In this document: positions 2,602-61,908 of the stretch, in pieces | How the letters are laid out: each line of letters starts with the position of its first letter | Numbering within the stretch: position 1 is the first letter of the stretch | NCBI GenBank assembly: GCA_017609915.1 | Contig: JAFCDA010000001.1 | Span: forward strand, 5,033-69,032 | From: Candidatus Pacearchaeota archaeon | GTDB taxonomy: Archaea > Nanobdellota > Nanobdellia > Pacearchaeales > GW2011-AR1 | Direction: 5' to 3' | DNA: 64,000 nucleotides | Notes under the pieces: generated by a model | The model's database searches: none | The model's input: the letters and a program-made list of their open reading frames with translations, nothing else | What the model was told of the DNA's origin: nothing | Program-made: the position numbers and the translations under genes

Positions 2602-3676
2602 TAGAAATACTTTCTTCTAACTCAGGGACATATTGATTAATAAGAAAATATTTTTCTAATAAAGGAGAAGTTAATTTTTTAAGATTATCATAATCTTCTA
2701 TTTCCCAATCAGGAGTTGAAAAAAACAAAGAAATTATTTTTTTATTTAATGCTGAAGCAAGATGTAGTGCCATTGTGTCTCCACATATAATTGTATCACA
2801 AATATTTACAACAGAAGCAAATTCTCTTAAAGAATTATTTGGGTCATTACTCATTAAAGAAATTCCTTGTTCTTTCATTTCTTTTATTAAATTTTCTTGT
2901 TTTTCAATTTCATTTGGACCTGCTAAAATAATTATCTTATTTCCTTGCAATCTTCTTATTAATTGTTTTATTTTTTCATTATTCCAAAATTTAACCCATC
3001 TATCTGAAGAACCTATATTTATCCCAATTATTTTATCATTATCAGAAAGATTATTTTGTAGTTTAAATTTTTCTGAAAACTCAATCTCTTTATTAGTTAA
3101 ATTAAAAACAGGTCTTTCTTTAGAATAATAAGATTCTAATTCACAAGCTTCTATAGTAAGTTGCTGATAAGTTTTTCTATTCTTTATCTTAACATGATTT
3201 AAAAAAGCTGTTTCTAAATAAGGTTCTGCAAATTCATTAAAATATGAGGTTGTTCCATTATCAAAAAAATAACCTAACTTTTCATTTGCTTTTACTAAAT
3301 TTGCCAATAATGTTGCAGGAGTGTCTATTTCTAGGGCAAATAAAATATCAAATTCTTCTTGTTGAATCCTTAAAATATTTTCAGGGTTATATGCAAGAAC
3401 TTTATCTACTAAAGGATTATTTTTAAGTAAATCAACAGATTCTGGATTAGTCATCCAATAAACTAAAATATCTGGCCCATATTTTTTCTTTAGAGCTGGT
3501 AAAATGCATGTTGTTCTTAAAACATCTCCCATTTCTCCAAGTTTTATAATCAAGATTTTTTTTGAGTATTCTTGTGCAAATTTGCATTCTTCACAAGACT
3601 TGTAATTTTCAGTAGATAATGTATCACAAGCATATTTTTCATTGAAAAACCTGCATTTTTTATTCCATTTTATCAT
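2561..3676 (-). CDS. glycosyltransferase family 9 (heptosyltransferase-like) with Cys-rich N-terminus
   Basis: ILIIKLGEMGDVLRTTCILPALKKKYG and C-terminal ICGDTMALHLASAL are GT9 hallmarks. There is an extra N-terminal CRFF..C..CEEC. Confidence 0.75.
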   Translation of the reverse strand: MIKWNKKCRFFNEKYACDTLSTENYKSCEECKFAQEYSKKILIIKLGEMGDVLRTTCILPALKKKYGPDILVYWMTNPESVDLLKNNPLVDKVLAYNPENILRIQQEEFDILFALEIDTPATLLANLVKANEKLGYFFDNGTTSYFNEFAEPYLETAFLNHVKIKNRKTYQQLTIEACELESYYSKERPVFNLTNKEIEFSEKFKLQNNLSDNDKIIGINIGSSDRWVKFWNNEKIKQLIRRLQGNKIIILAGPNEIEKQENLIKEMKEQGISLMSNDPNNSLREFASVVNICDTIICGDTMALHLASALNKKIISLFFSTPDWEIEDYDNLKKLTSPLLEKYFLINQYVPELEESISIEQVLEALNKDDN

Positions 3677-4133: not shown

Positions 4134-5054
4134 TTAATCCAAACTCCTAGTGCTCTTTGTTTCTTGTTTTCTCCAACCATCTACATATTTTTGTTTTTTG
4201 AACTTTAGCTCATAAAAAGCTCTTAAATAAATGTAAAATCTTGTTGAAAAAAGAGGTATTGTGAAAAAAACTTCTCGAAGGTTTTTTGGGTAAGTTAAAG
4301 CAAAAATAGCTCCTTGTTTTATTTCATTGAAAAAAGATTTGGTTCTTGGCATATCTGGAGCAATTTTATTCAAACTTTCATGTCCTTTTATGTTTCTTAT
4401 TTTTTGTATTTTAAAATCTTTCCAGTTTTGAGGATTTATAACATAAACTTCTACTTTTGGTAAATATTTTATTTTATATCCTTGCTTATGAAATAAATAA
4501 GAAATAACACCATCTTCAGAAGATTCTAAAGGGAATCCTTGTAAAACTCCGTTTCTAATCGCAAATAAATAACCTGAACATTCAAAAAACTTTTTCTGAT
4601 TTGAAAATCTTAATCTTGTTTTATGAATCCCATCAAAGGCTACATGAGAAGCATAGCCCCAAAACTTTTCTCTAGGATTTAATAAAACAGGTCTTCCAGT
4701 TATACATCCAACTTCTTTGTCTTTAAATGCTTTCATGATTTCATTTACTGTGTTTTGTGAAACATAAACATCTCCATCAGTAAGGATGATAATGTCATCT
4801 TTGTTCTGAGAATAAATTCTTTCTAAGAAAATGTTTAAAGCATAACTTTTACCTTCTCCTGGATCTAAGAAAAAGTCTATTTTGTTTTTCTTAAACTCTT
4901 TTTTATACTTTTTATTTAGAAATTCCTCTGTTTTTAGAAAAGGGTCTATTATTGTTATTTTAAATTCTTGCTTAATATTTTGATTAAGAAAACAATCAAT
5001 TGCCCTTGAAGTTGCTTTTGGTTCTCCATAAGAGGTTATAATTATGTTAATCAT
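4134..5054 (-). CDS. glycosyltransferase family 2
   Basis: GT-A pattern: IIITSYGEPK at the N-terminus and the TDGDVYV acidic motif. 306 aa. Confidence 0.65.
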   Translation of the reverse strand: MINIIITSYGEPKATSRAIDCFLNQNIKQEFKITIIDPFLKTEEFLNKKYKKEFKKNKIDFFLDPGEGKSYALNIFLERIYSQNKDDIIILTDGDVYVSQNTVNEIMKAFKDKEVGCITGRPVLLNPREKFWGYASHVAFDGIHKTRLRFSNQKKFFECSGYLFAIRNGVLQGFPLESSEDGVISYLFHKQGYKIKYLPKVEVYVINPQNWKDFKIQKIRNIKGHESLNKIAPDMPRTKSFFNEIKQGAIFALTYPKNLREVFFTIPLFSTRFYIYLRAFYELKFKKQKYVDGWRKQETKSTRSLD

Positions 5055-30904: not shown

Positions 30905-31333
30905 TCAAAAATATTTGTTTGGATATTTTTCTCTTAATACTAAATGTCTTATTAAACTAAATTCCCTAACATAAAGCATATTTTTATGCCCAAAGTATAA
31001 TAAATCTAATATTGAATGAAATATCATTCCAATTAAAGCAAAATAAAATCCTCTCCAGAAAAAAGATAAAATAAAAACAAGAATTAAAAATTCTATTGTG
31101 TGGAAAACCATCATTATTGGTTTTTTTAAATTTTTACTTAGTTTTTCAAGATAATTATAAGAATTTTTTAAATCCCAATCTTTTTTTCTTGCTACATACC
31201 ATAAGTAATGGTCAAAGTCTATTAAAATAGAACTTAAAAAAACTAAAAGAGTTTGGAAGATAGTTAATGAAAATAACCAATATAATAATGCTGAAAATAT
31301 TGCTCCTAATATGATGTGGTGTTTTGGCAGCAT
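30905..31333 (-). CDS. small membrane protein (possibly DUF457/YdjM-like metal-dependent hydrolase)
   Basis: MLPKHHIILGAIF...LIDFDHYLWY. 4 TM helices. Confidence 0.35.
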   Translation of the reverse strand: MLPKHHIILGAIFSALLYWLFSLTIFQTLLVFLSSILIDFDHYLWYVARKKDWDLKNSYNYLEKLSKNLKKPIMMVFHTIEFLILVFILSFFWRGFYFALIGMIFHSILDLLYFGHKNMLYVREFSLIRHLVLREKYPNKYF

Positions 31334-31556
31334 TTTTACCTCTTTTTTATGTTTCTTTTTTTATCTCTATAATCTTAGGTTTAATTATCTGAGTTTTTCT
31401 TAATCCCAGTAGAACAAATCTCCCTATACTTATAAATTATTTGTATAAAATATTTATATTCTTATTGTATTTTTAAGCTATGCTCTTCTTTTCTTTAAAT
31501 CTTAATCTCATCATAACATCTTTTCTTATGCTTATAAGATATTTGTTTTTAATAGA

Positions 31557-33062
31557 TTAATCTCTCAAAATCTTTTTTACCATTTCTGAGAATGCAGGAC
31601 GAGTAATAAATACTCCTGCTGAGATTCCAATTATTGTTGTGATTGCAAATCCTTTTAATAAACCTGCTCCTGCCCACATAAGAGGAAGCAAAGCAAATAA
31701 TGTAGTTACATATGTTCCTAAAATAATAAACAAAGCTCTTTTAATTCTCTGTTTTAATGAAAGAATATGACTCATTTGAGATTCATCTAAGATAATTATT
31801 TGTGAATCAACCCCTGTTCCAATTGCTGCTATAATTCCTGCAATTGCTGGTAAATCTAAATTTCTTTTAAATAATGCTGAAATTCCTAAAATTATTAAAA
31901 CTTCACACAAACTTGTTAATAAAACTGCTAAAGATAATTTTATTTTTCTATATCTTAAAAAAATCATTAAACCTACTGCAAGAATTGCAGCAGCTCCTGC
32001 AATTAAAATTGTGTTAATAAATTTTTTCCCAAGTAATGGAGAAATTGTATCTAATTTTTCTATTTGTAATTTAAAAGGTAGAGAGCCTGTTTTTAGAACT
32101 GTTTGTAATCTATTCATCTCAATTTTAGTATTTTCTATTGCTTCATTCCTTGTTTCTCCAGACCCAGATCCGCTAATTTGAATCTGAGTTGTTGTACTCC
32201 CCCTCAATCCTTCAGAAATAGATAAAGAACTAAATAATTCATCATCTAAATATAAATCTATTTTTTTATCTAATGATTGTGGATTTTCAGGGTCTAATCC
32301 CAACCCTTTTGTTATCTTTGCAAATCTTTCTGCAGCTTCTGGGCTTAAGGTTATTCCAAATCTAAAGTTACAAAATTCTTCTTCTTGAGTGGTTCTACAA
32401 TCATAAATTCCTGCCTGTTCTCCTGTTTTTGCAACATAAGTTATATCCCTATTCCCACCAATAAATACAGTTTTGTTTCCGATTTTTGCTTCAAATTTTC
32501 CTTGTTGAGAAATTAAATTTCCAAGTTCTTCACGGGTTGAACCAGCTATTTCAATTAACATATAATTATTTCCAGAAAGGTCTGTAACAGGCCTAATTAT
32601 AATATCTTTTAGTCCATAAACATTTAATCTCTGGCTTGTTATGTCTATAAGATCTTGCAACTCCTGAACATTTAATTTTTTATCCTTAGCTACAACTAAT
32701 GCTCTTGATCCACCTGATAAATCTAATCCTGTTTTGATTCTTGTTTTATCTATATTTGCAACACTTATTTGTGGAGCTTTATTTGTAAATAAAATAAATT
32801 CTCCTTTTTTAGTTGTTATTGTTATTTTTTGATTTTCACTTAAAAAAACTTTTGAATTAATTATTTCTTTATAATCTTCAAAACTTAATATTTTTTGCCC
32901 ATCAATATGGGTAATTATCTGTCCTTGCCTTAATCCTTGTTCATAAGCTGTTGAATTTTGTTCTATTGAAATAATTTCAACTCCTTTTTCAAAATTTAAA
33001 GGAACCATAGCTAATATAGAACCTAAAACTACAAATATTAATAACCAAATTTTCCAGTTCAT
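31557..33062 (-). CDS. secD: protein-export membrane protein SecD with N-terminal PDZ-like segment
   Basis: GLDLSGGSRALV motif and a C-terminal 5-6 TM bundle. Directly downstream of secF. Confidence 0.75.
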   Translation of the reverse strand: MNWKIWLLIFVVLGSILAMVPLNFEKGVEIISIEQNSTAYEQGLRQGQIITHIDGQKILSFEDYKEIINSKVFLSENQKITITTKKGEFILFTNKAPQISVANIDKTRIKTGLDLSGGSRALVVAKDKKLNVQELQDLIDITSQRLNVYGLKDIIIRPVTDLSGNNYMLIEIAGSTREELGNLISQQGKFEAKIGNKTVFIGGNRDITYVAKTGEQAGIYDCRTTQEEEFCNFRFGITLSPEAAERFAKITKGLGLDPENPQSLDKKIDLYLDDELFSSLSISEGLRGSTTTQIQISGSGSGETRNEAIENTKIEMNRLQTVLKTGSLPFKLQIEKLDTISPLLGKKFINTILIAGAAAILAVGLMIFLRYRKIKLSLAVLLTSLCEVLIILGISALFKRNLDLPAIAGIIAAIGTGVDSQIIILDESQMSHILSLKQRIKRALFIILGTYVTTLFALLPLMWAGAGLLKGFAITTIIGISAGVFITRPAFSEMVKKILRD

Positions 33063-33168
33063 TTTTTGTTTTTCATTTTTATTTAATTTTTAATTATCTT
33101 ATATCCTTAATCTTCTCATCTGAATCTCGTTCTATGCTTATAAGATATTAATTATTTTCCTCCATAAT

Positions 33169-34122
33169 TTAATCCCTCTCCTTCTTTTCCAAATACCATT
33201 TTAATATTGAAGCATTTGTAATCCATGTATTAAGAATATCAAAACCTAAACCAATTAACAAGATAGTGAATATTTGTTTTAAAACAGGTGAAAATGATTG
33301 AGTGATAATTAAAGCTACACTAAGTGCAATTATAGAAGTTAGAGTCATTGTTATCCCTGTTTTAAATGCATCTTTAAGTTTTGTGTTTATTTGCCCTTGT
33401 CTTTTTAATAGACGTGTTGTAAGCATAATATCAGTATCTACACTATAACCAATTAACATTAAAAATGCAATAATTCCTGCACTTGAAACTCTTATTCCTA
33501 ATATATTTACTAAAGCTAAAGTCATCATAATATCTGCAAAAGCAGAAAGAACAACTGCCATACTTGGTGCAAAAGTTCTAAAAATAATAAAAACAACTAT
33601 TGCCATTAAAATAAAAGATATTAAAATTGCAAATTGTAATTGTTTGTAAAAAGACTCTCCTAAAGTTGAGCCTGTTGAGACCACGCTTGAATTTTCACTT
33701 GTTAAGTCATAACCTAAGAAATCTTCTATTGAAGAAGTTATGGTTTTATACTCTTCAGAAGTTGATTCTATTGGAATTTCAATAATAATTGCTTCTTGTT
33801 TTCCTGTTCTAAAATTAGATAGTTCTCTGATATTAAAATCATCTATTTTCTGAGATAATCTGTTTGTTAAATCATTTATATTTATTTCTTCTTGTTCAGA
33901 AAAAATAGTTATTGTTGTTCCTCCTGTTAAAGAAACATCTCTTTTTATGAAGTCGTTGTTTTGCTGGTGGAAATATGCTATATAACCTAATGATAGGATT
34001 AATAAAATTAAGGGGATTAAAAGTAGTAACTTATAGTTTTTATTATAAAATTTTAGGGCTTTTCTTCCTAATTTCTTTTCTTCTTGTTCTATTTCATTGA
34101 GGATGTTGTTTTCTTGTTCCAT
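33169..34122 (-). CDS. secF: protein-export membrane protein SecF
   Basis: LMLIGYSVDTDIMLTTRLLKR and the TM pattern. Met at 34122 (MEQENN) preferred over ORF-track start 34182, which runs into the repeat element. Confidence 0.8.
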   Translation of the reverse strand: MEQENNILNEIEQEEKKLGRKALKFYNKNYKLLLLIPLILLILSLGYIAYFHQQNNDFIKRDVSLTGGTTITIFSEQEEININDLTNRLSQKIDDFNIRELSNFRTGKQEAIIIEIPIESTSEEYKTITSSIEDFLGYDLTSENSSVVSTGSTLGESFYKQLQFAILISFILMAIVVFIIFRTFAPSMAVVLSAFADIMMTLALVNILGIRVSSAGIIAFLMLIGYSVDTDIMLTTRLLKRQGQINTKLKDAFKTGITMTLTSIIALSVALIITQSFSPVLKQIFTILLIGLGFDILNTWITNASILKWYLEKKERD

Positions 34123-34170
34123 ATTTTGTTTTATCTGGTATCTTAATATCTTAAGCTGAATTGATGAGTG

Positions 34171-34244
34171 GCAAGGGTACATCCCTTCCGTAACCCTTTT
34201 CTTAATCTTCTCATCTGAGTATCTCTCTATGCTTATAAAATATT
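34171..34244. repeat. ~80-nt intergenic element, copy 2 (first copy 2157..2237)
   Basis: gcaagggtacatcccttccgtaaccc...tcttctcatctgag...ctatgcttataaaatatt. Same orientation relative to the downstream (minus-strand) gene as copy 1. Confidence 0.8.
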
Positions 34245-34272
34245 AGTTTTTTATTTGATTTTTATTATTAAA

Positions 34273-40332: not shown

Positions 40333-40659
40333 ATGAAAACAAAGAAACATATCCAAAAAGTTAGAAATGCAATCAATAAATTTGATATAGTTACTACTGA
40401 TTTATTTGCTCAAAGCGTGATACAAAGAGCTAAGGCCTTAGAGGAATCTGTGGATGAGGGTTGGTTTATACCTTTTCTTAAAATATCTGAGGTAACTGGA
40501 GCAAGCGTAGCTACCTATGGAGCTTTAACAAATAAACCTTATGTGATTGGGGCTGGGGCAGGATTTGCTTTAATGGCAGGAATTTATCATTTATTAATAA
40601 ATAGAGTTGTGAAAAAACAAAATGAAACAGACAATAATTCAATTAAAAAACGTACATAA
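40333..40659 (+). CDS. small protein with C-terminal Gly-zipper TM helix
   Basis: 108-aa ORF with VIGAGAGFALMAGIYHLL. Overlaps the ABC ATPase start by 38 nt. Confidence 0.4.
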   Translation: MKTKKHIQKVRNAINKFDIVTTDLFAQSVIQRAKALEESVDEGWFIPFLKISEVTGASVATYGALTNKPYVIGAGAGFALMAGIYHLLINRVVKKQNETDNNSIKKRT

Positions 40660-41296
40660 AGACTATAAAATAGGGGATACTATAATCCCTGCTGTTGATG
40701 GTGTAGATTTAGAAATAAAACAAGGAGATTTTATTGCTATTGTTGGACCTTCTGGAAGTGGTAAAAGTACCATGATGAATCTTGTTGGGGCATTAGATTT
40801 AGCTACAAAAGGAGATATTTTTCTAGATGATGTTAATATTGAACATTTACATGAATCTGAATTAGCTCAACTAAGAGGAAAGAAAATAGGATTTGTATTT
40901 CAAACATTTAATTTAATTCCTACACTTACAGCACTTGAAAATGTTATGTTACCTATGATTTTTCAAAATGTTGAATTAGAAGAAAGAAAAGAAAGAGCTA
41001 CTAAGCTTTTAGCAGATTTGGGATTAGGTGAAAGATTAAAACACCTTCCAAGTGAATTATCAGGTGGAGAAAGACAAAGAGTTGCACTTGCTCGTGCACT
41101 TGCAAATGATCCTGAAGTTATTTTAGCTGATGAACCTACAGGTAATCTTGATTCAAAAAGAAGCAAAGAAATTGCTGAAATGTTTGTTAAATTAAGCAAA
41201 CAAGGAAAGACAATAATCCTTGTTACACATGATTTAGATATAGCAAAGTATGCTAGTAAAGTTTATAAACTAAAAGATGGGAGGATAAGTAAGTAA
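40622..41296 (+). CDS. ABC transporter ATP-binding protein (MacB/LolD type)
   Basis: Walker A GPSGSGKST, signature LSGGERQRVALARAL, Walker B ILADEPTGNLD. Confidence 0.9.
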   Translation: MKQTIIQLKNVHKDYKIGDTIIPAVDGVDLEIKQGDFIAIVGPSGSGKSTMMNLVGALDLATKGDIFLDDVNIEHLHESELAQLRGKKIGFVFQTFNLIPTLTALENVMLPMIFQNVELEERKERATKLLADLGLGERLKHLPSELSGGERQRVALARALANDPEVILADEPTGNLDSKRSKEIAEMFVKLSKQGKTIILVTHDLDIAKYASKVYKLKDGRISK

Positions 41297-41297
41297 A

Positions 41298-41501
41298 ATG
41301 GAATATAGACAAAATAAATTAGGATCTTTGTTAACTACAATGGGATTACTTATGGTAGTTGCTTTTGGAACAGTGAGGGGTTATAAAAGATGCCAAAGAG
41401 AATGCGAACAAATTACAAGAAATTTTGAAGTATCAGATATAAATGTTAAAGATATTGATAAAGGTGGTTTAAACGATATTATTAAATTTGGAAATAGATA
41501 A
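41298..41501 (+). CDS. small single-TM protein
   Basis: 67 aa with LLTTMGLLMVVAFG. Tightly packed in the ABC operon. Confidence 0.4.
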   Translation: MEYRQNKLGSLLTTMGLLMVVAFGTVRGYKRCQRECEQITRNFEVSDINVKDIDKGGLNDIIKFGNR

Positions 41502-41721
41502 AATGACAGAAAAATTAACTGAAAAATTGAACTTTTCATTTACAACAGATCATAATGGGAAAACATATGGAGTTATACCTAAAGGCAATGAAGGACATCT
41601 TGATTGGAGCAAGAGTGATGTTTATGAAATAATTAATGAAAAAACAAACCAGTATGTTGAAGTAATGGGCCCTATAAAATCTCAAATAATGGAAAAATTT
41701 GATAATGCAAGGAAAAAATAA
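41488..41721 (+). CDS. small soluble hypothetical protein
   Basis: 77-aa ORF overlapping the upstream ORF by 14 nt. Confidence 0.35.
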   Translation: MEIDKMTEKLTEKLNFSFTTDHNGKTYGVIPKGNEGHLDWSKSDVYEIINEKTNQYVEVMGPIKSQIMEKFDNARKK

Positions 41722-41766
41722 AATGAAAACTAAAATAATTGTTAAATTGGATGATAAGTAAGTAAA

Positions 41767-42117
41767 ATGGGAATAAAAACAGTAAAAAACTTTTTAAATC
41801 CTATATATCATATGATCAATTATATTGATCTTGACAATAGAGGGTTGTCTGATGCAAAATTTGTTGTAAAAGGCTGTGCATCTATTTTATTAGGGGGTTT
41901 AGAATCTGTATTATACGGAAGTTTATTAGGTGGAGTAAGTGTAGCTGTTTTTGGTGGAGATTCTAAAAAAATAATTATAGGCTCTGCTGTGGGGGCAGTT
42001 GCTGGGGTCGGTGCTTGGGCAACTAAAGGAATACAATTAGGAATCATGGAAAATGAAAATCCTAAGAAATATAAACAATATTTAGCAAAAATAAAATACA
42101 AAACAAAATTAAAATGA
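41767..42117 (+). CDS. small Gly-zipper membrane protein
   Basis: GGLESVLYGSLLGGVSVAVFGG...GSAVGAVAGVGAWA. Confidence 0.4.
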   Translation: MGIKTVKNFLNPIYHMINYIDLDNRGLSDAKFVVKGCASILLGGLESVLYGSLLGGVSVAVFGGDSKKIIIGSAVGAVAGVGAWATKGIQLGIMENENPKKYKQYLAKIKYKTKLK

Positions 42118-43031
42118 AAACTCAAACACTAACACTAATAACCGCATTATTCATCATTCTTAGTTTAGCAAGTATTCAAGCTTTAGTAATTGATTCTGTA
42201 AAAATGTATCCTAGTGAAATAGCACCTGGTGAAACAGCTGTTATAACTGTGGGTATTGAAAATGATGGAGATGAAGATGTTACAAATGTTGCAGTTATTT
42301 TAGATTTAACAGGGATTATTGAATCAGACATTCCTGGAGCACCTTTAACAGCTTTAGATATCCCTTTTGCGCCTTATGAATCAAGTTCAGAACATAGTTT
42401 TGATGAAATTGAAGAAGATGAAACAGATTATGCTGAATTTGAAATCATAGCATTAGGTGATGCTAAATCAGGAGTATATAAAATTCCTTTAAGAATAAGT
42501 TATACAGAAGATGATGAATTAAAAACTAGAAATTCTTTAATTGGGGTTACTGTTAATTCAAAACCTATAATTGGAGTTAATATTGAAGATGGCTTATTGT
42601 TAAAACCTCAAGAAAATGAAATAGATATTAAAGTAATAAATAAAGGATTATCAGATGTAAGATTTTTAGAAGTTGAAATTGGAAGCTCTACTTATTTTGA
42701 TGTATTATCTAATAAACAAGTTTATATTGGAGATATTGATAGTGATGATTTTGATACTGCTGATTTTAAGATTTATTTTAAGAGCAATGCTCCAAGTACT
42801 TTAACTCTTCCTATAAGTATTACATATAAAGATGCTGTTAATAATGAATATAATGAAGATTTTGATATACAAGTAAAAGTTTATACAAGAGATAAAGCTA
42901 TTGAGCTTGGTTTATTGGAAAGAAGTTATACTAGTATATATGTGGGTGTTGTTGTTGGTGTTATAATCCTTTGGATAATTTATAGGAAAATAAAGAAAAG
43001 AAGAAAGTTGAAAAAGAGGAAGGAGGGTTAA
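42114..43031 (+). CDS. secreted beta-rich (CARDB/COG1361-like) protein with C-terminal TM anchor
   Basis: Signal-like N-terminus, two Ig-like repeats by eye (PGETAVITVGIENDGDEDVTNV; IDIKVINKGLSDVRF). C-terminal TM plus a KKRRKLKKRKEG tail. Confidence 0.45.
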   Translation: MKTQTLTLITALFIILSLASIQALVIDSVKMYPSEIAPGETAVITVGIENDGDEDVTNVAVILDLTGIIESDIPGAPLTALDIPFAPYESSSEHSFDEIEEDETDYAEFEIIALGDAKSGVYKIPLRISYTEDDELKTRNSLIGVTVNSKPIIGVNIEDGLLLKPQENEIDIKVINKGLSDVRFLEVEIGSSTYFDVLSNKQVYIGDIDSDDFDTADFKIYFKSNAPSTLTLPISITYKDAVNNEYNEDFDIQVKVYTRDKAIELGLLERSYTSIYVGVVVGVIILWIIYRKIKKRRKLKKRKEG

Positions 43032-46415: not shown

Positions 46416-46958
46416 ATGCAAGAACAAACACAAGAAATCAAAGAAAATAACATTTCTTCTTTAGAAAAGAAGACAAGATTGAACAAAGAAGAAACTAAGG
46501 AAGAATACTTTTCTATAATTAGGATTCTACAAACAGATATTCCTGGGAATAAAAAAACTTTGGTTGGTTTAACATATATTAAAGGAGTTTCTTGGGCTAT
46601 TTCTAATGCTTTATGTAAAATTCTTAATTTAGATCCTGAAAAAAAAATTCTAGATTTAGATAAAAAAGAAATAAAAATAATAGAGGATTTTTTAAAAAAT
46701 CCTCAAAACTTGCCTGAATTTTTAAAAAATAGAAGAAATGAATTTGAAACAGGAGAAGATTCTCATTTAGTTGGAGCTGAACTTGATATGAAAAAAGAGT
46801 TTGATATTAGAAGATTAAAAAAAATAAGATCTTACAGGGGATTAAGACATGCTTTTGGACATCCTACAAGAGGGCAAAGAACAAGAAGCCATTTTAGGGC
46901 TAAAGGAAAGAAAAAAGCAATTGGAGTTAAAACAAAGAAAGTAGGAAAGAAAGGATAA
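46416..46958 (+). CDS. rps13: 30S ribosomal protein S13 (uS13) with N-terminal extension
   Basis: IIRILQTDIPGNKK...IRSYRGLRHAFGHPTRGQRTRSHFR. Confidence 0.9.
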   Translation: MQEQTQEIKENNISSLEKKTRLNKEETKEEYFSIIRILQTDIPGNKKTLVGLTYIKGVSWAISNALCKILNLDPEKKILDLDKKEIKIIEDFLKNPQNLPEFLKNRRNEFETGEDSHLVGAELDMKKEFDIRRLKKIRSYRGLRHAFGHPTRGQRTRSHFRAKGKKKAIGVKTKKVGKKG

Positions 46959-47020: not shown

Positions 47021-47668
47021 ATGCCAAAAAGAAAACGTAAAAAATATTCAAGACCGCAAAGGCCTTTTGATAAAGCAAGAATACAAGAAGAAAATCTTCT
47101 TAGAGACAAATATGGACTTAAAAATAAAAAAGAAATATGGAAAGCAGATGCTGCAATAGCAAGGATTAGAAATCTTGTAAAACAATTAATTACAAAACCT
47201 GAAGAAGAGAAAAAAGCATTTGTTAAAAAACTCCAAACAAAAGGATTTAAAGTTAATAATATTGCAGATTCTTTAGCTTTAGATAAAGAAGATTGGTTAA
47301 AAAGAAGATTACAAACAATAGTGTTTAGTAAAAAATTAGCAAGAACACCTAAACAAGCAAGACAATTAGTTGCTCATAAACAAGTATCTATTGGAAATAA
47401 AACAATTAATATTCCTTCATACCAAGTTAGTTTAGAACAAGAGCCTGAAATAAAATTAAATATTGTATTAAAAAAACCTAAAAATTCTAAAAAAGATTCT
47501 AAAGAAAAAATAGAAGAAGCTAAAAGTGAAGAGATTAAACCTGTTGAAGAGATTGCTGAAAAAACTGAAACTAAAGAACAAACCCCTAAACCTATAGAAA
47601 AACAACCTGAACAACCAATAACAAATACTAATAAAATAGAAAAAGTTAAAGAGAAAGAAAATGCCTAA
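47021..47668 (+). CDS. rps4: 30S ribosomal protein S4 (uS4) with K/E-rich C-terminal extension
   Basis: KKYSRPQRPFDKARIQEE...LARTPKQARQLVAHKQVSIGNKTINIPSYQV. Confidence 0.9.
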   Translation: MPKRKRKKYSRPQRPFDKARIQEENLLRDKYGLKNKKEIWKADAAIARIRNLVKQLITKPEEEKKAFVKKLQTKGFKVNNIADSLALDKEDWLKRRLQTIVFSKKLARTPKQARQLVAHKQVSIGNKTINIPSYQVSLEQEPEIKLNIVLKKPKNSKKDSKEKIEEAKSEEIKPVEEIAEKTETKEQTPKPIEKQPEQPITNTNKIEKVKEKENA

Positions 47669-47897
47669 AAATCTTAAAAAAATAATCGGAACAGGAATAC
47701 TCTTATTAGCTTTAGGTGGAAATATGAATAAAAACCTTAATCCTATTCAAACAGGGGTTGCTCAAAAAAGATATATTAAACAACCAAATAATGTTGAAAA
47801 AGCAATCTATATGGGGGCTTTTGTAGGAACTTCCCTATTAGCAACTTTAGGAATTCATAAACTTCTAACTAAATATAGAACTAATGAAAATGCCTAA
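47661..47897 (+). CDS. 78-aa 2-TM protein inserted between rps4 and rps11
   Basis: IIGTGILLLALGG and AIYMGAFVGTSLLATLGI. Bounded by the 15-bp direct repeats 47657..47671 and 47886..47900. Confidence 0.45.
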   Translation: MPKNLKKIIGTGILLLALGGNMNKNLNPIQTGVAQKRYIKQPNNVEKAIYMGAFVGTSLLATLGIHKLLTKYRTNENA

Positions 47898-48444
47898 AAA
47901 AGAAACTAAAGAAAAAATTGAGAAAGAAAAACCAAAGGTAGAAGTTAAAAAAAATAAATCAACTAATATCTCTCAAAAATCTGAAGAAAAGCCTATTGAA
48001 GATAAAAAATTAATGGGTAAAGATCCTGAAGAGAAAAAAGAGACAAAAATTGAAAAAAGAAAAGAGAAAAAAGATAGAATAGGTATTCTTAATATTTATA
48101 CTACTTTTAATAATACAATTATGAATCTAACAGACTTATCTGGAAAAAGTATTGCTAAATTTGGTGGAGGACAATCAACAAAACAAGATAGATTAAAAGC
48201 TAATCCAACAATAGCAATGTTTGTTTCTCAAAGAATAGCTGAAGAAGCAAGAGACAATGGAATAACAGGGTTTTATGTTAAAGTAAGGGCTAAAACAGGG
48301 CAAAACAACCCTGGACCAGGAGCTCATGCAGCAATTAAATCACTTACAAGAGCAGGGTTTAGAATTTTAAGTATTATGGATACTACAAAGATTCCTAGAG
48401 GAGGGCCTAAAAAGAAAGGAGGAAGAAGAGGAAGAAGACCATAA
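47884..48444 (+). CDS. rps11: 30S ribosomal protein S11 (uS11) with long K/E-rich N-terminal extension
   Basis: GILNIYTTFNNTIMNLTDLSGK...GPGAHAAIKSLTRAGFRILSIMDTTKIPRGG. Start may be 47884 or 47890, or the internal Met (MGKD). Confidence 0.85.
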   Translation: MKMPKKETKEKIEKEKPKVEVKKNKSTNISQKSEEKPIEDKKLMGKDPEEKKETKIEKRKEKKDRIGILNIYTTFNNTIMNLTDLSGKSIAKFGGGQSTKQDRLKANPTIAMFVSQRIAEEARDNGITGFYVKVRAKTGQNNPGPGAHAAIKSLTRAGFRILSIMDTTKIPRGGPKKKGGRRGRRP

Positions 48445-48478
48445 ATAGGTTTAAAAATGATAAAAATTACTCAATAAA

Positions 48479-49144
48479 ATGATAAAAATACAAAATTATG
48501 ATAAAGAAAAGCAAAAGATGGGTTTTATAACAGACATGTCTTTTAATCTAGCTAATGCTATTAGGCGGAGTGTTTTAGAAATTCCAACCATGGCAATTGA
48601 TGAAGTTCAAATCTCTAAAAATGATTCTGCATTATATGATGAAATAATCGCTCATAGAATTGGTTTGGTTCCCATAAAAACAAATAAAATATCTAAAGAA
48701 ACAAAATTCAAATTAAAAGAAAAAGGACCAAAAACAGTTTATTCAACAGATATAAGCCCATCTATAGGTGTAGATTATAAATTGCCTATTGTGATTTTAG
48801 ATGAAGGGCAAGAAATTGAGATGGTTATAAATGCAAAATTAGGTAAGGGAATTGAACATATTAAATATTCTCCTGGCTTACTTTATTATTCTTATAATTT
48901 AGAACCTGAAGTTTTAGATTTCACTAATGTGAATGAAAAAGGGAAAATTAGTTATGATGAAAAAGAAATAAGAAAAGATAAATTATCAGAAGAGCAAATA
49001 AATAAAATAAAAAAATTAGATAATGTTAAAGAATTAATCATAAATATTGAATCTTGGAAACAAATAGAAGTTAAGGATATTTTTCTAAGAGCTATTGAAG
49101 TTTTAGATAGTAATTTAAGTGAATTAGGTAAGGCTGTAAAATAG
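48479..49144 (+). CDS. rpoD: DNA-directed RNA polymerase subunit D (Rpo3), Cys-free form
   Basis: FNLANAIRRSVLEIPTMAIDEV...DEIIAHRIGLVPIK. No cysteines, so no Fe-S domain. Confidence 0.8.
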   Translation: MIKIQNYDKEKQKMGFITDMSFNLANAIRRSVLEIPTMAIDEVQISKNDSALYDEIIAHRIGLVPIKTNKISKETKFKLKEKGPKTVYSTDISPSIGVDYKLPIVILDEGQEIEMVINAKLGKGIEHIKYSPGLLYYSYNLEPEVLDFTNVNEKGKISYDEKEIRKDKLSEEQINKIKKLDNVKELIINIESWKQIEVKDIFLRAIEVLDSNLSELGKAVK

Positions 49145-61521: not shown

Positions 61522-61623
61522 AAGCCTTATTTGAGTTTTACAGCAGTACCATATGCTAACATCTCTTCTCGATGCACATAAGCCTTATTTGAGTTTTACA
61601 GCAGTACCATATGCTAACATCTC
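61522..61623. repeat. 44-nt direct repeat (period 58 nt) duplicating the 3' end of the YbjQ-like gene
   Basis: aagccttatttgagttttacagcagtaccatatgctaacatctc occurs at 61522..61565 and 61580..61623. Confidence 0.9.
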
Positions 61624-61908
61624 GGCTGCACCTTGCATTATCATTGATGTTGCAAATCTTATAGTGATAATTGCATCTGCCTTAAGTTCAATAGCTTGAT
61701 TAACCATTCTATTAAATGCTTCTTCTCTTGCATGAGTAGTCATATCTGTATAGCTTTTTATTTCTCCACCAACAATGTTTTTGAATCCTGCTGCAATATC
61801 TCTTCCAACATGTCGTGCTCTTATTGTGTTTCCTTTTACAACCCCTAAAATCTCTACTACTTTTTTTCCAGGTATTTCAGATGTTGTACTGGTTATTATT
61901 TCTACCAT
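61585..61908 (-). CDS. YbjQ/UPF0145 family protein
   Basis: TTSEIPGKKVVEILGVVKGNTIRARHVGRDIAAGFKNIVGGEI...ADAIITIRF. Confidence 0.75.
   Translation of the reverse strand: MVEIITSTTSEIPGKKVVEILGVVKGNTIRARHVGRDIAAGFKNIVGGEIKSYTDMTTHAREEAFNRMVNQAIELKADAIITIRFATSMIMQGAAEMLAYGTAVKLK

Follow-up and report, generated by a model that had tools for sequence, protein, structure and literature searches.

An orphan small gene between rps4 and rps11 of a Pacearchaeota archaeon, probably inserted with duplication of the stop/start overlap

How can a new gene join an operon at a point where the end of one gene overlaps the start of the next? The question is raised by a stretch of 64,000 nucleotides (nt) from Candidatus Pacearchaeota archaeon (GCA_017609915.1, JAFCDA010000001.1, 5,033-69,032, forward strand), which we call the window and which has a G+C content of 27%. 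There, an open reading frame (ORF) of 78 codons, ORF78, lies between rps4 and rps11, the genes for ribosomal proteins S4 and S11. The string S13-S4-S11-RpoD is among the most conserved in archaea, and S4 and S11 physically overlap in this clade. We propose that 214 bp of foreign or unsampled coding DNA was probably inserted into the rps4/rps11 overlap and that the junction was duplicated in the process. The features of the locus are as follows.

46416-46958, plus strand: rps13 (S13), the operon member 5' of rps4 (Pfam Ribosomal_S13, E = 4.5e-34)
47021-47668, plus strand: rps4 (uS4), 215 residues (Pfam S4 domain, E = 8.5e-12)
47657-47671, plus strand: repeat copy 1, GAAAATGCCTAAAAA, with the S4 stop and the ORF78 ATG (47661)
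47661-47897, plus strand: ORF78, a 78-residue orphan, whose first codons (MPK) and last codons (ENA*) stem from the duplicated S11 start and S4 end, respectively
47672-47885, plus strand: insert interior, 214 bp, unique, between both repeat copies
47886-47900, plus strand: repeat copy 2, GAAAATGCCTAAAAA, with the ORF78 stop TAA (47895-47897) and the S11 ATG (47890)
47890-48444, plus strand: rps11 (uS11), its start MPKKETKEK.. set by homology (Pfam Ribosomal_S11, E = 2.3e-25)
48479-49144, plus strand: rpoD (Rpo3), the operon member 3' of rps11 (Pfam RNA_pol_L and RNA_pol_A_bac)

A prediction read from the letters of the window (the original prediction) had named the S13-S4-S11-RpoD operon, and all four genes are matched by Pfam; it had also placed a 15-nt direct repeat at the two positions where the copies are indeed found. 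S4, whose fast-evolving C-terminal tail is rich in lysine and glutamate (K/E-rich) and ends in ..KEKENA*, closes with GAA AAT GCC TAA in copy 1 (stop TAA at 47666-47668), and ORF78 closes with the same codons in copy 2, while ATG CCT AAA opens ORF78 in copy 1 and S11 in copy 2. The roles assigned to the copies therefore hold on sequence and translations, the first ending S4 (..ENA*) and starting MPKN, the second ending ORF78 (..ENA*) and starting S11 with MPKK. Junction signals had been claimed for both sides of the small gene, and the overlap ATGCCTAA is present at 47661-47668 and again at 47890-47897, with stop and start overlapping at each end of ORF78. The spacing from copy to copy is 229, or 1 modulo 3, so that the ATG frame of copy 1 passes into the TAA frame of copy 2. 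An additional in-frame ATG for S11, at 47884, is produced by the end of the insert; S11 N-termini in relatives read MPKE or MPKQ. Within the window GAAAATGCCTAAAAA has these two matches only, allowing up to one mismatch on both strands, when 0.08 matches are expected in dinucleotide shuffles and two matches were obtained in 0/100 shuffles. By BLAST, the identity grows to 17/18 nt, starting from 47654 and 47883.

In order to establish what the junction looks like elsewhere, genomes were scanned with RpoD and metagenomes with S11, which gave 87 related loci from Pacearchaeota, Woesearchaeota and Nanoarchaeia bins; contigs of closer relatives were reached through an S4 protein search. Measured from S4 stop to S11 start, the gap ranges from -74 to +54 in the 77 loci that have both genes, L001 and L020 being the exceptions; most values fall between -11 and +11, and the identical 8-nt overlap occurs in nine loci. 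Among the 11 closest loci, seven (L001, L088-L092, L095), standing for four of the seven closest lineages, have a single GAAAATGCCTAAAGA (or ..ACA) junction with nothing between S4 and S11, and S11 starts 8 nt before the end of S4. For L096 the 8-nt overlap comes from gene calls, the junction sequence itself not having been read. The junctions that bear on the comparison are these.

L088-L092 and L095: 8-nt overlap with one GAAAATGCCTAAAGA (or ..ACA)
L001: this junction too, following an S4 tail with a frameshift
L093 and L094: TAAAATGCCTAAAG, with a 1-nt spacer

In L001 (3100-3272), S4 is cut by a TGA at 3107-3109 and the K/E-rich tail goes on in another frame to ..KEKENA* at the normal S11 overlap, which reflects either a frameshift or a sequencing error. 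A global MAFFT alignment of the S4-S11 region against L001 was uninformative, the tails being of low complexity, and the junctions were compared directly. The single junction of the relatives is exactly the state that the original prediction expected from deleting one repeat together with the interior.

Several further lines of evidence point to the single junction as the ancestral state. S4 ends in ENA in 10 of the 15 closest proteins, which indicates that the overlap is ancestral in the clade and that ATGCCTAA constrains the S4 C-terminus. The left flank of copy 1, AAAGAGAAAGAAAATGCC, is orthologous to the S4 tail of relatives and matches AAGGAGAAAGAAAATGCC in L001, while the right flank of copy 2, MPKKETKEKIEKEKPKV, is orthologous to their S11 N-termini (MPKQEKETKEKIE and ..KTKIEKEKPKV). 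Positions 11-15 of the repeat read AAAAA in both window copies, versus AAAGA or AAACA in all relatives; both copies thus derive from one sequence of the window lineage. In a tree of the S4 and S11 cores, the window is sister to L093 and L095, within a clade that also holds L097, L088, L089, L091 and L001. As the window is nested within an insert-free clade, a single recent gain is the simplest account, and loss would need at least three precise deletions. Anything at all between S4 and S11 is found in only 3 of 88 loci (the window, L097 and L020). Altogether, the single ancestral junction, the nested position in the tree and the orphan status of ORF78 support the inferred insertion of a small gene by junction duplication.

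The proposed sequence of events is the following. Coding DNA of 214 bp, foreign or unsampled, would have entered the 8-nt rps4-stop/rps11-start overlap ATGCCTAA, and about 15-18 bp of the junction would have been duplicated during insertion. Copy 1 would have kept ending S4 and lent the insert the old S11 start (MPK); copy 2 would have lent it the old S4 end and stop (ENA*) and kept starting S11. The result would be a promoter-less cistron with neither a start nor a stop of its own, and ribosomes terminating on S4 would read ORF78 and then pass to S11 via the ATGnnTAA overlap that relatives use to go from S4 to S11. The duplication may have come about through a staggered double-strand break filled in around captured DNA, or through a replicative template switch in which 214 nt were copied elsewhere with re-entry 15-18 nt behind the departure point. 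Since the ATG of S11 comes before the TAA of S4, nothing fits between the two genes unless at least the 8-nt overlap is duplicated. Only events that duplicate the overlap would therefore be viable, and selection, keeping only those that regenerate both signals, would explain why the surviving event regenerates both. The geometry suggests translational coupling from S4 to ORF78 to S11 by termination-reinitiation; a premature stop in ORF78 would then probably be polar on the essential S11, and the frame would be protected whatever the peptide does.

What was gained looks like a gene. ORF78 spans the whole insert, and in DNA of such composition a run of 76 open codons would arise by chance with a probability of about 9e-4. 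By codon log-odds ORF78 scores 0.565, and the interior taken alone 0.563, where 78-codon pieces from the long genes of the window score 0.586 +/- 0.164 and the other two frames of ORF78 score -1.06 and -1.68; its G+C content and its G+C at third codon positions (GC3) are host-like as well. The codon statistics and the open frame together make ORF78 look like an evolved coding sequence and not a random spacer, and from its composition the source looks like the host organism itself or a similarly AT-rich donor. The protein has a basic N-terminus, a hydrophobic segment at 8-20 (13 residues), a polar loop of about 26 residues, a second hydrophobic segment at 47-66 (20 residues) and a basic tail; AlphaFold run without an alignment gave helices at 3-25 and 44-77, with a predicted local distance difference test score (pLDDT) of 72. 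The original prediction of two transmembrane (TM) segments holds only approximately: the stretch at 47-66 reaches full TM length by hydropathy, while the one at 8-20 is only 13 residues long and could be a signal peptide. The label of membrane protein comes from hydropathy and the single-sequence AlphaFold model, and ORF78 may form a helical hairpin or combine a signal peptide with a C-terminal anchor.

The search for homologues of the 78-residue protein returned only ORF78 itself, both in a word-indexed search of 5.8 billion protein clusters and in a full HMMER read of 1.84 billion representatives; Pfam, PHROGs and viral contigs likewise gave no match. Nothing significant emerged when ORF78 was compared with the other small membrane ORFs of the window, with the small ORFs that relatives carry between S13 and S4, or with a 58-residue ORF (ORF58) of L097. 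In the cluster collection ORF78 is present on one contig of 70,449 bp, and an exact look-up of ORF78 and S4 in the contig index was without match. The same holds at the DNA level: within the 64-kb window and 87-97 related loci, the 214-bp interior had no similarity to any other sequence. Compared with the preceding and following 214 nt it showed no significant similarity (p = 0.23 and 0.80), a duplication extending into the flanks was not significant, and no inverted repeat has arms at both insert ends. The hexamer ACTAAT stands ahead of both copies, at a distance of 30 bases from copy 1 and of six from copy 2, which could be chance. We also considered a structured RNA or riboregulator in the junction and rejected it, the insert having no Rfam match at E <= 1 and no unusually stable fold (z-score -0.5).

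The design is found a second time. L020 (Ga0180009_10010084), a distant relative with 74% identity, has a complete gene for an alpha/beta hydrolase of 255 residues (Hydrolase_4, E = 6.6e-20) after S4 and before S11. Both borders of this gene carry the same 16 nt, TAAGATGGTTGAAGAA, at 2030-2045 and 2799-2814. S4 stops in copy 1, where the hydrolase opens with MVEE; the hydrolase in turn stops in copy 2, where S11 also opens with MVEE. The 16-mer is not of low complexity. This is an independent event with the design seen in the window, and it suggests that the design is not a one-off. The third occupied junction belongs to L097 (Logan SRR30965927), which is as close to the window as any locus (93.8% identity over the S4 and S11 cores, tied with L089). 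Its soluble orphan ORF58 (1238-1414) is a different gene, unrelated to ORF78 as protein or DNA and without a homologue in the 5.8 billion clusters; L097 also carries a 120-residue ORF between S13 and S4 (215-577) that has no flanking repeats.

Small lineage-specific ORFs are commoner at the two neighbouring junctions than between S4 and S11. Between S13 and S4, proteins of 64-73 residues with one TM segment occur in L003, L020, L034 and L038, those of L020 and L034 being homologous; between S11 and RpoD, soluble proteins of 56-98 residues occur in L003, L008, L013/L015, L022, L009, L019, L020 and L063. No long flanking repeats were found around these small ORFs of relatives, and no family was seen to move between junctions, the families being junction-specific. 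Two larger genes were also observed in the operon. L093 (2817-4025) and L094 (1297-2505) have a 402-residue gene of opposite strand separating S11 from RpoD. L025, L028 and L029 (~4230-5016) carry, between RpoD and L18e, an ORF of 208-236 residues whose sequence LRGFLDTDG resembles the LAGLIDADG motif.

How unusual is such a repeat? Of 3737 pairs of non-adjacent starts, taken from all loci, only one has start-anchored identity of at least 15 nt. For insert boundaries that are unrelated, the longest common string reaches 11 nt at the 99th percentile and 14 at most, and the flanking repeats of 15-18 nt lie above this null. A plain 15-mer repeat is not rare in itself, as a third-order Markov model expects about one within 500 bp in the AT-rich window; what is not random is a GCC-containing sequence standing exactly on two consecutive stop/start junctions. 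We calibrated this by scanning all 509 kb for ORFs that start in one repeat copy and stop in the other, a scan that brought up native genes as well. Adjacent tight gene pairs share 15 nt or more in at least 6 of ~355 cases, a count that combines the result of an automated filter with cases missed by filters, versus the 1 in 3737 for non-adjacent pairs.

Several observations weigh against insertion with junction duplication. Native genes, too, can stand between identical junctions: L13 does so in L079 (18 nt; 4545/4988) and L065 (17 nt; 3104/3496), and S13 between 15-nt junctions in L004 (721/1286). An identical junction pair alone is therefore no proof of insertion, and local junction copying or gene conversion exists as a separate process. 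Conversely, about 26 other small ORFs in the operon and in an ATP-binding cassette (ABC) transporter locus, in the window and in relatives, have no flanking repeat above background, ORF58 between S4 and S11 of L097 among them. No donor sequence was found in the window or the related loci, so that 'foreign' is our inference only. The insert structure is known from one assembled metagenome contig, and the tree is a neighbour-joining tree of 274 residues, built without bootstrap. Finally, motifs resembling the Shine-Dalgarno (SD) sequence are not enriched in the genome (8/62 genes against a 13% background), which leaves the mode of initiation uncertain, coupling or unstructured AT-rich starts being likely. 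For the same reason a polarity argument from SD motifs (GGAGG before the S11 ATG of relatives, none at window copy 2) was dropped as weak.

Given the native-gene cases, it is the comparison with relatives, and not the repeat alone, that carries the case for insertion in the window; the same cases lead to the alternative that survives best. The identical junctions may have arisen by local copying, gene conversion or convergence on a coupling motif, ORF78 having arrived or arisen separately, an account that we consider unlikely. In L079, L065 and L004 the neighbouring N-termini look copied, S9 (or S4) beginning with the same residues as its upstream neighbour, a pattern that suggests junction copying, or tandem duplication followed by deletion. 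The enrichment of identical junctions in adjacent over non-adjacent genes fits this alternative, as does the frequency of MPK starts in the genome (ATGCCnAAr occurs 10 times). In the window, however, the ancestral overlap demands a duplicated overlap from the outset, which excludes later homogenisation. Its repeat has a rare GCC and is not of low complexity, unlike the junctions of L079, L065 and L004, which are far more A-rich, and the same design stands in L020 with a complex 16-mer.

It is quite improbable, secondly, that ORF78 is an older resident gene which relatives lost by recombination between the junction copies. Deletion between direct repeats is easy and scar-free and would leave the single junction of the relatives; the junction by itself gives no polarity, and many relatives carry small ORFs at other junctions of the operon. 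Polarity comes instead from the S4+S11 tree, on which at least three independent precise losses stand against one gain. No homologue of ORF78 turned up in any database searched, the lineage-specific AAAAA is present in both copies, and 85 of 88 loci have nothing between S4 and S11.

A tandem duplication of 229 bp, taking in the 5' region of S11 or the 3' tail of S4 and followed by divergence and the de novo birth of ORF78, is very improbable. The S4 tail and the N-terminal extension of S11 are repetitive and indel-prone, short tandem duplications exist in the window at the RpoD start (48454/48476) and at 61522/61580 (58-bp unit), and the ORF78 end ..TNENA resembles S4 tails of the form ..NTN..ENA. 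Yet the interior keeps no residual similarity to either 214-nt flank, 15 perfect bases beside 214 fully diverged bp are unlike neutral decay, and ORF78, hydrophobic and with host-like codons, has a composition that no frame of the K/E-rich flanks resembles. Least credible is an assembly artefact, chimeric join or collapsed strain variant: the gene is on a single metagenome contig, but the 15-18-nt repeat is shorter than usual assembler k-mers, the insert is exactly in frame with 78 open codons (p ~9e-4) and host codon usage, and an independent assembly, L020, has the same design.

Junction duplication also has a parallel elsewhere in the window. At the ABC-transporter locus, GATAAGTAAGTAAAATGG forms an 18-nt exact direct repeat at 41284-41301 and 41753-41770 (21/22 with flanks; context 40622-42128). 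Copy 1 holds the stop of the ABC ATPase and the start of a 67-residue ORF, and copy 2 precedes the start of a 116-residue membrane ORF. The features and the gene orders after the ATPase are listed below.

41298-41501: ORF67, one TM segment, between the 18-nt copies
41503-41721: ORF72, between the 18-nt copies
41723-41761: a 12-codon remnant that copies the start of the 305-residue gene at 42114
41767-42117: ORF116, a membrane ORF ending in ..TKLK*
Order in the window: ORF67, ORF72, the 12-codon remnant, ORF116, the 305-residue gene
Order in L091: a 74-residue ORF (ORF74, homologue of ORF72), then a 306-residue gene
Order in L088: a 306-residue gene directly

The small-ORF content of this locus differs among relatives, L088 and L091 having fewer. 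Since ORF116 and ORF74 of L091 both end in TKLK*, that junction was duplicated as well. The ABC ATPase is flanked by two window-specific, glycine-rich membrane ORFs, at 40333-40659 (108 residues) and 41767-42117 (116 residues), which are weakly alike (z = 3.35); neither is present in the close relatives L088 and L091.

Other repeats in the window are observations in their own right. At the RpoD start, AAAATGATAAAAAT occurs twice, at 48454-48467 and 48476-48489, 22 nt apart, and the upstream copy opens a 6-codon mini-ORF (MIKITQ*) that stops just before the true RpoD ATG. Among six relatives checked, L095 has a similar element (AAAATGATGAAAATTACACAAAATAA) and L001, L088, L089, L091 and L093 have none. 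A 44-nt exact direct repeat with a 58-nt period (61522-61565 and 61580-61623) at the 3' end of a minus-strand ORF of 107 residues (61585-61908) looks like a short tandem duplication of the gene end. Finally, a conserved promoter- or leader-like motif of ~45 nt (AATATCTTATAAGCATAGA..TCAGATGAGAAGATTAAG) is found on the minus strand at 31527-31543, 33106-33150 and 34201-34245; it precedes SecD (31557-33062) and SecF (33169-34182) and, in a weaker form, a 142-residue gene at 30905-31333.

Taken together, the three repeat-flanked events, namely the independent ones between S4 and S11 in the window and in L020 and the one at the ABC locus, along with the excess of identical junctions between adjacent genes, raise a wider idea, tentative and on balance rather doubtful. 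Promoter-less cassettes may insert recurrently, possibly driven by an enzyme, at stop/start junctions in Pacearchaeota-like DPANN archaea, duplicating ~15-20 bp each time. If so, a cassette would take the start of the downstream gene and the stop of the upstream gene and would be translationally coupled on both sides, making it a translation-level analogue of the integron cassette, and essential ribosomal operons would offer orphan genes landing pads with high expression. No motif is common to the inner ends of the three inserts.

With or without this generalisation, the locus shows how a gene can join such a site without harm to its neighbours, the duplicated overlap regenerating both signals. 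It points to a concrete way, open to test, in which the orphan genes of reduced DPANN genomes would reach immediate high expression, and it suggests that they could become hard to lose, as S11 synthesis would depend on reading through them. The replicate in L020 and the second locus in the window raise the interest of the finding.

How does this event compare with known systems? Transposable elements leave target-site duplications, of 2-14 bp for insertion sequence (IS) elements and 14-15 bp for casposons. As in such a duplication, a direct repeat of host sequence (15 nt exact, 17/18 extended) flanks the insert and is single-copy in relatives, and its length of 15-18 bp is near that of casposase-type integration. 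Unlike a transposable element or a miniature inverted-repeat transposable element (MITE), the insert has no terminal inverted repeats, holds no transposase or Cas1 in its 214-229 bp, and has no second copy in the window, the related loci or the protein databases. A transposon origin is argued against by this lack of element ends, further copies and a recombinase in the insert. In T4-type phages, small ORFs are shuffled between repeated promoter/stem-loop cassettes (PeSL), of which there are many per genome. ORF78 is likewise a small novel ORF bounded by short repeated expression signals at gene boundaries, whereas the repeat in the window consists of a duplicated stop/start overlap and occurs at this site only.

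The likeness to coupled overlapping genes (ATGA, TAATG, ATGnnTAA) is that both new junctions reproduce the ancestral 8-nt ATGCCTAA overlap; in contrast to the usual case, the overlap stands twice in tandem around a new cistron, and coupling is here predicted from geometry. ORF78 also resembles the small membrane proteins of bacterial operons in being hydrophobic, shorter than 100 residues and placed among larger co-transcribed genes, but its partners are ribosomal and not membrane complexes, and it matches no Pfam or PHROG family.

The closest precedent is the gain of ORFans by operons. It has been argued that one insertion event creates a pair of a native gene and an ORFan (Price, Arkin and Alm 2006, PMC1480536), in a study of E. 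coli and B. subtilis in which ORFans were mostly appended downstream of the native gene and changes within pre-existing operons were much less common. Like those ORFans, which are expressed from the native promoter, ORF78 is restricted to one lineage, has no homologues beyond it and is placed within a native transcription unit; close relatives lack it at the orthologous position. Unlike them, it sits in the middle of an essential ribosomal operon, in an overlapping junction, with a start and a stop borrowed from the duplication; that study describes no duplication of a stop/start overlap. A literature search found the general concept of the ORFan in an operon and no description of the junction-duplication design. 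The event is essentially a variant of ORFan gain within an operon and not a new kind of system.

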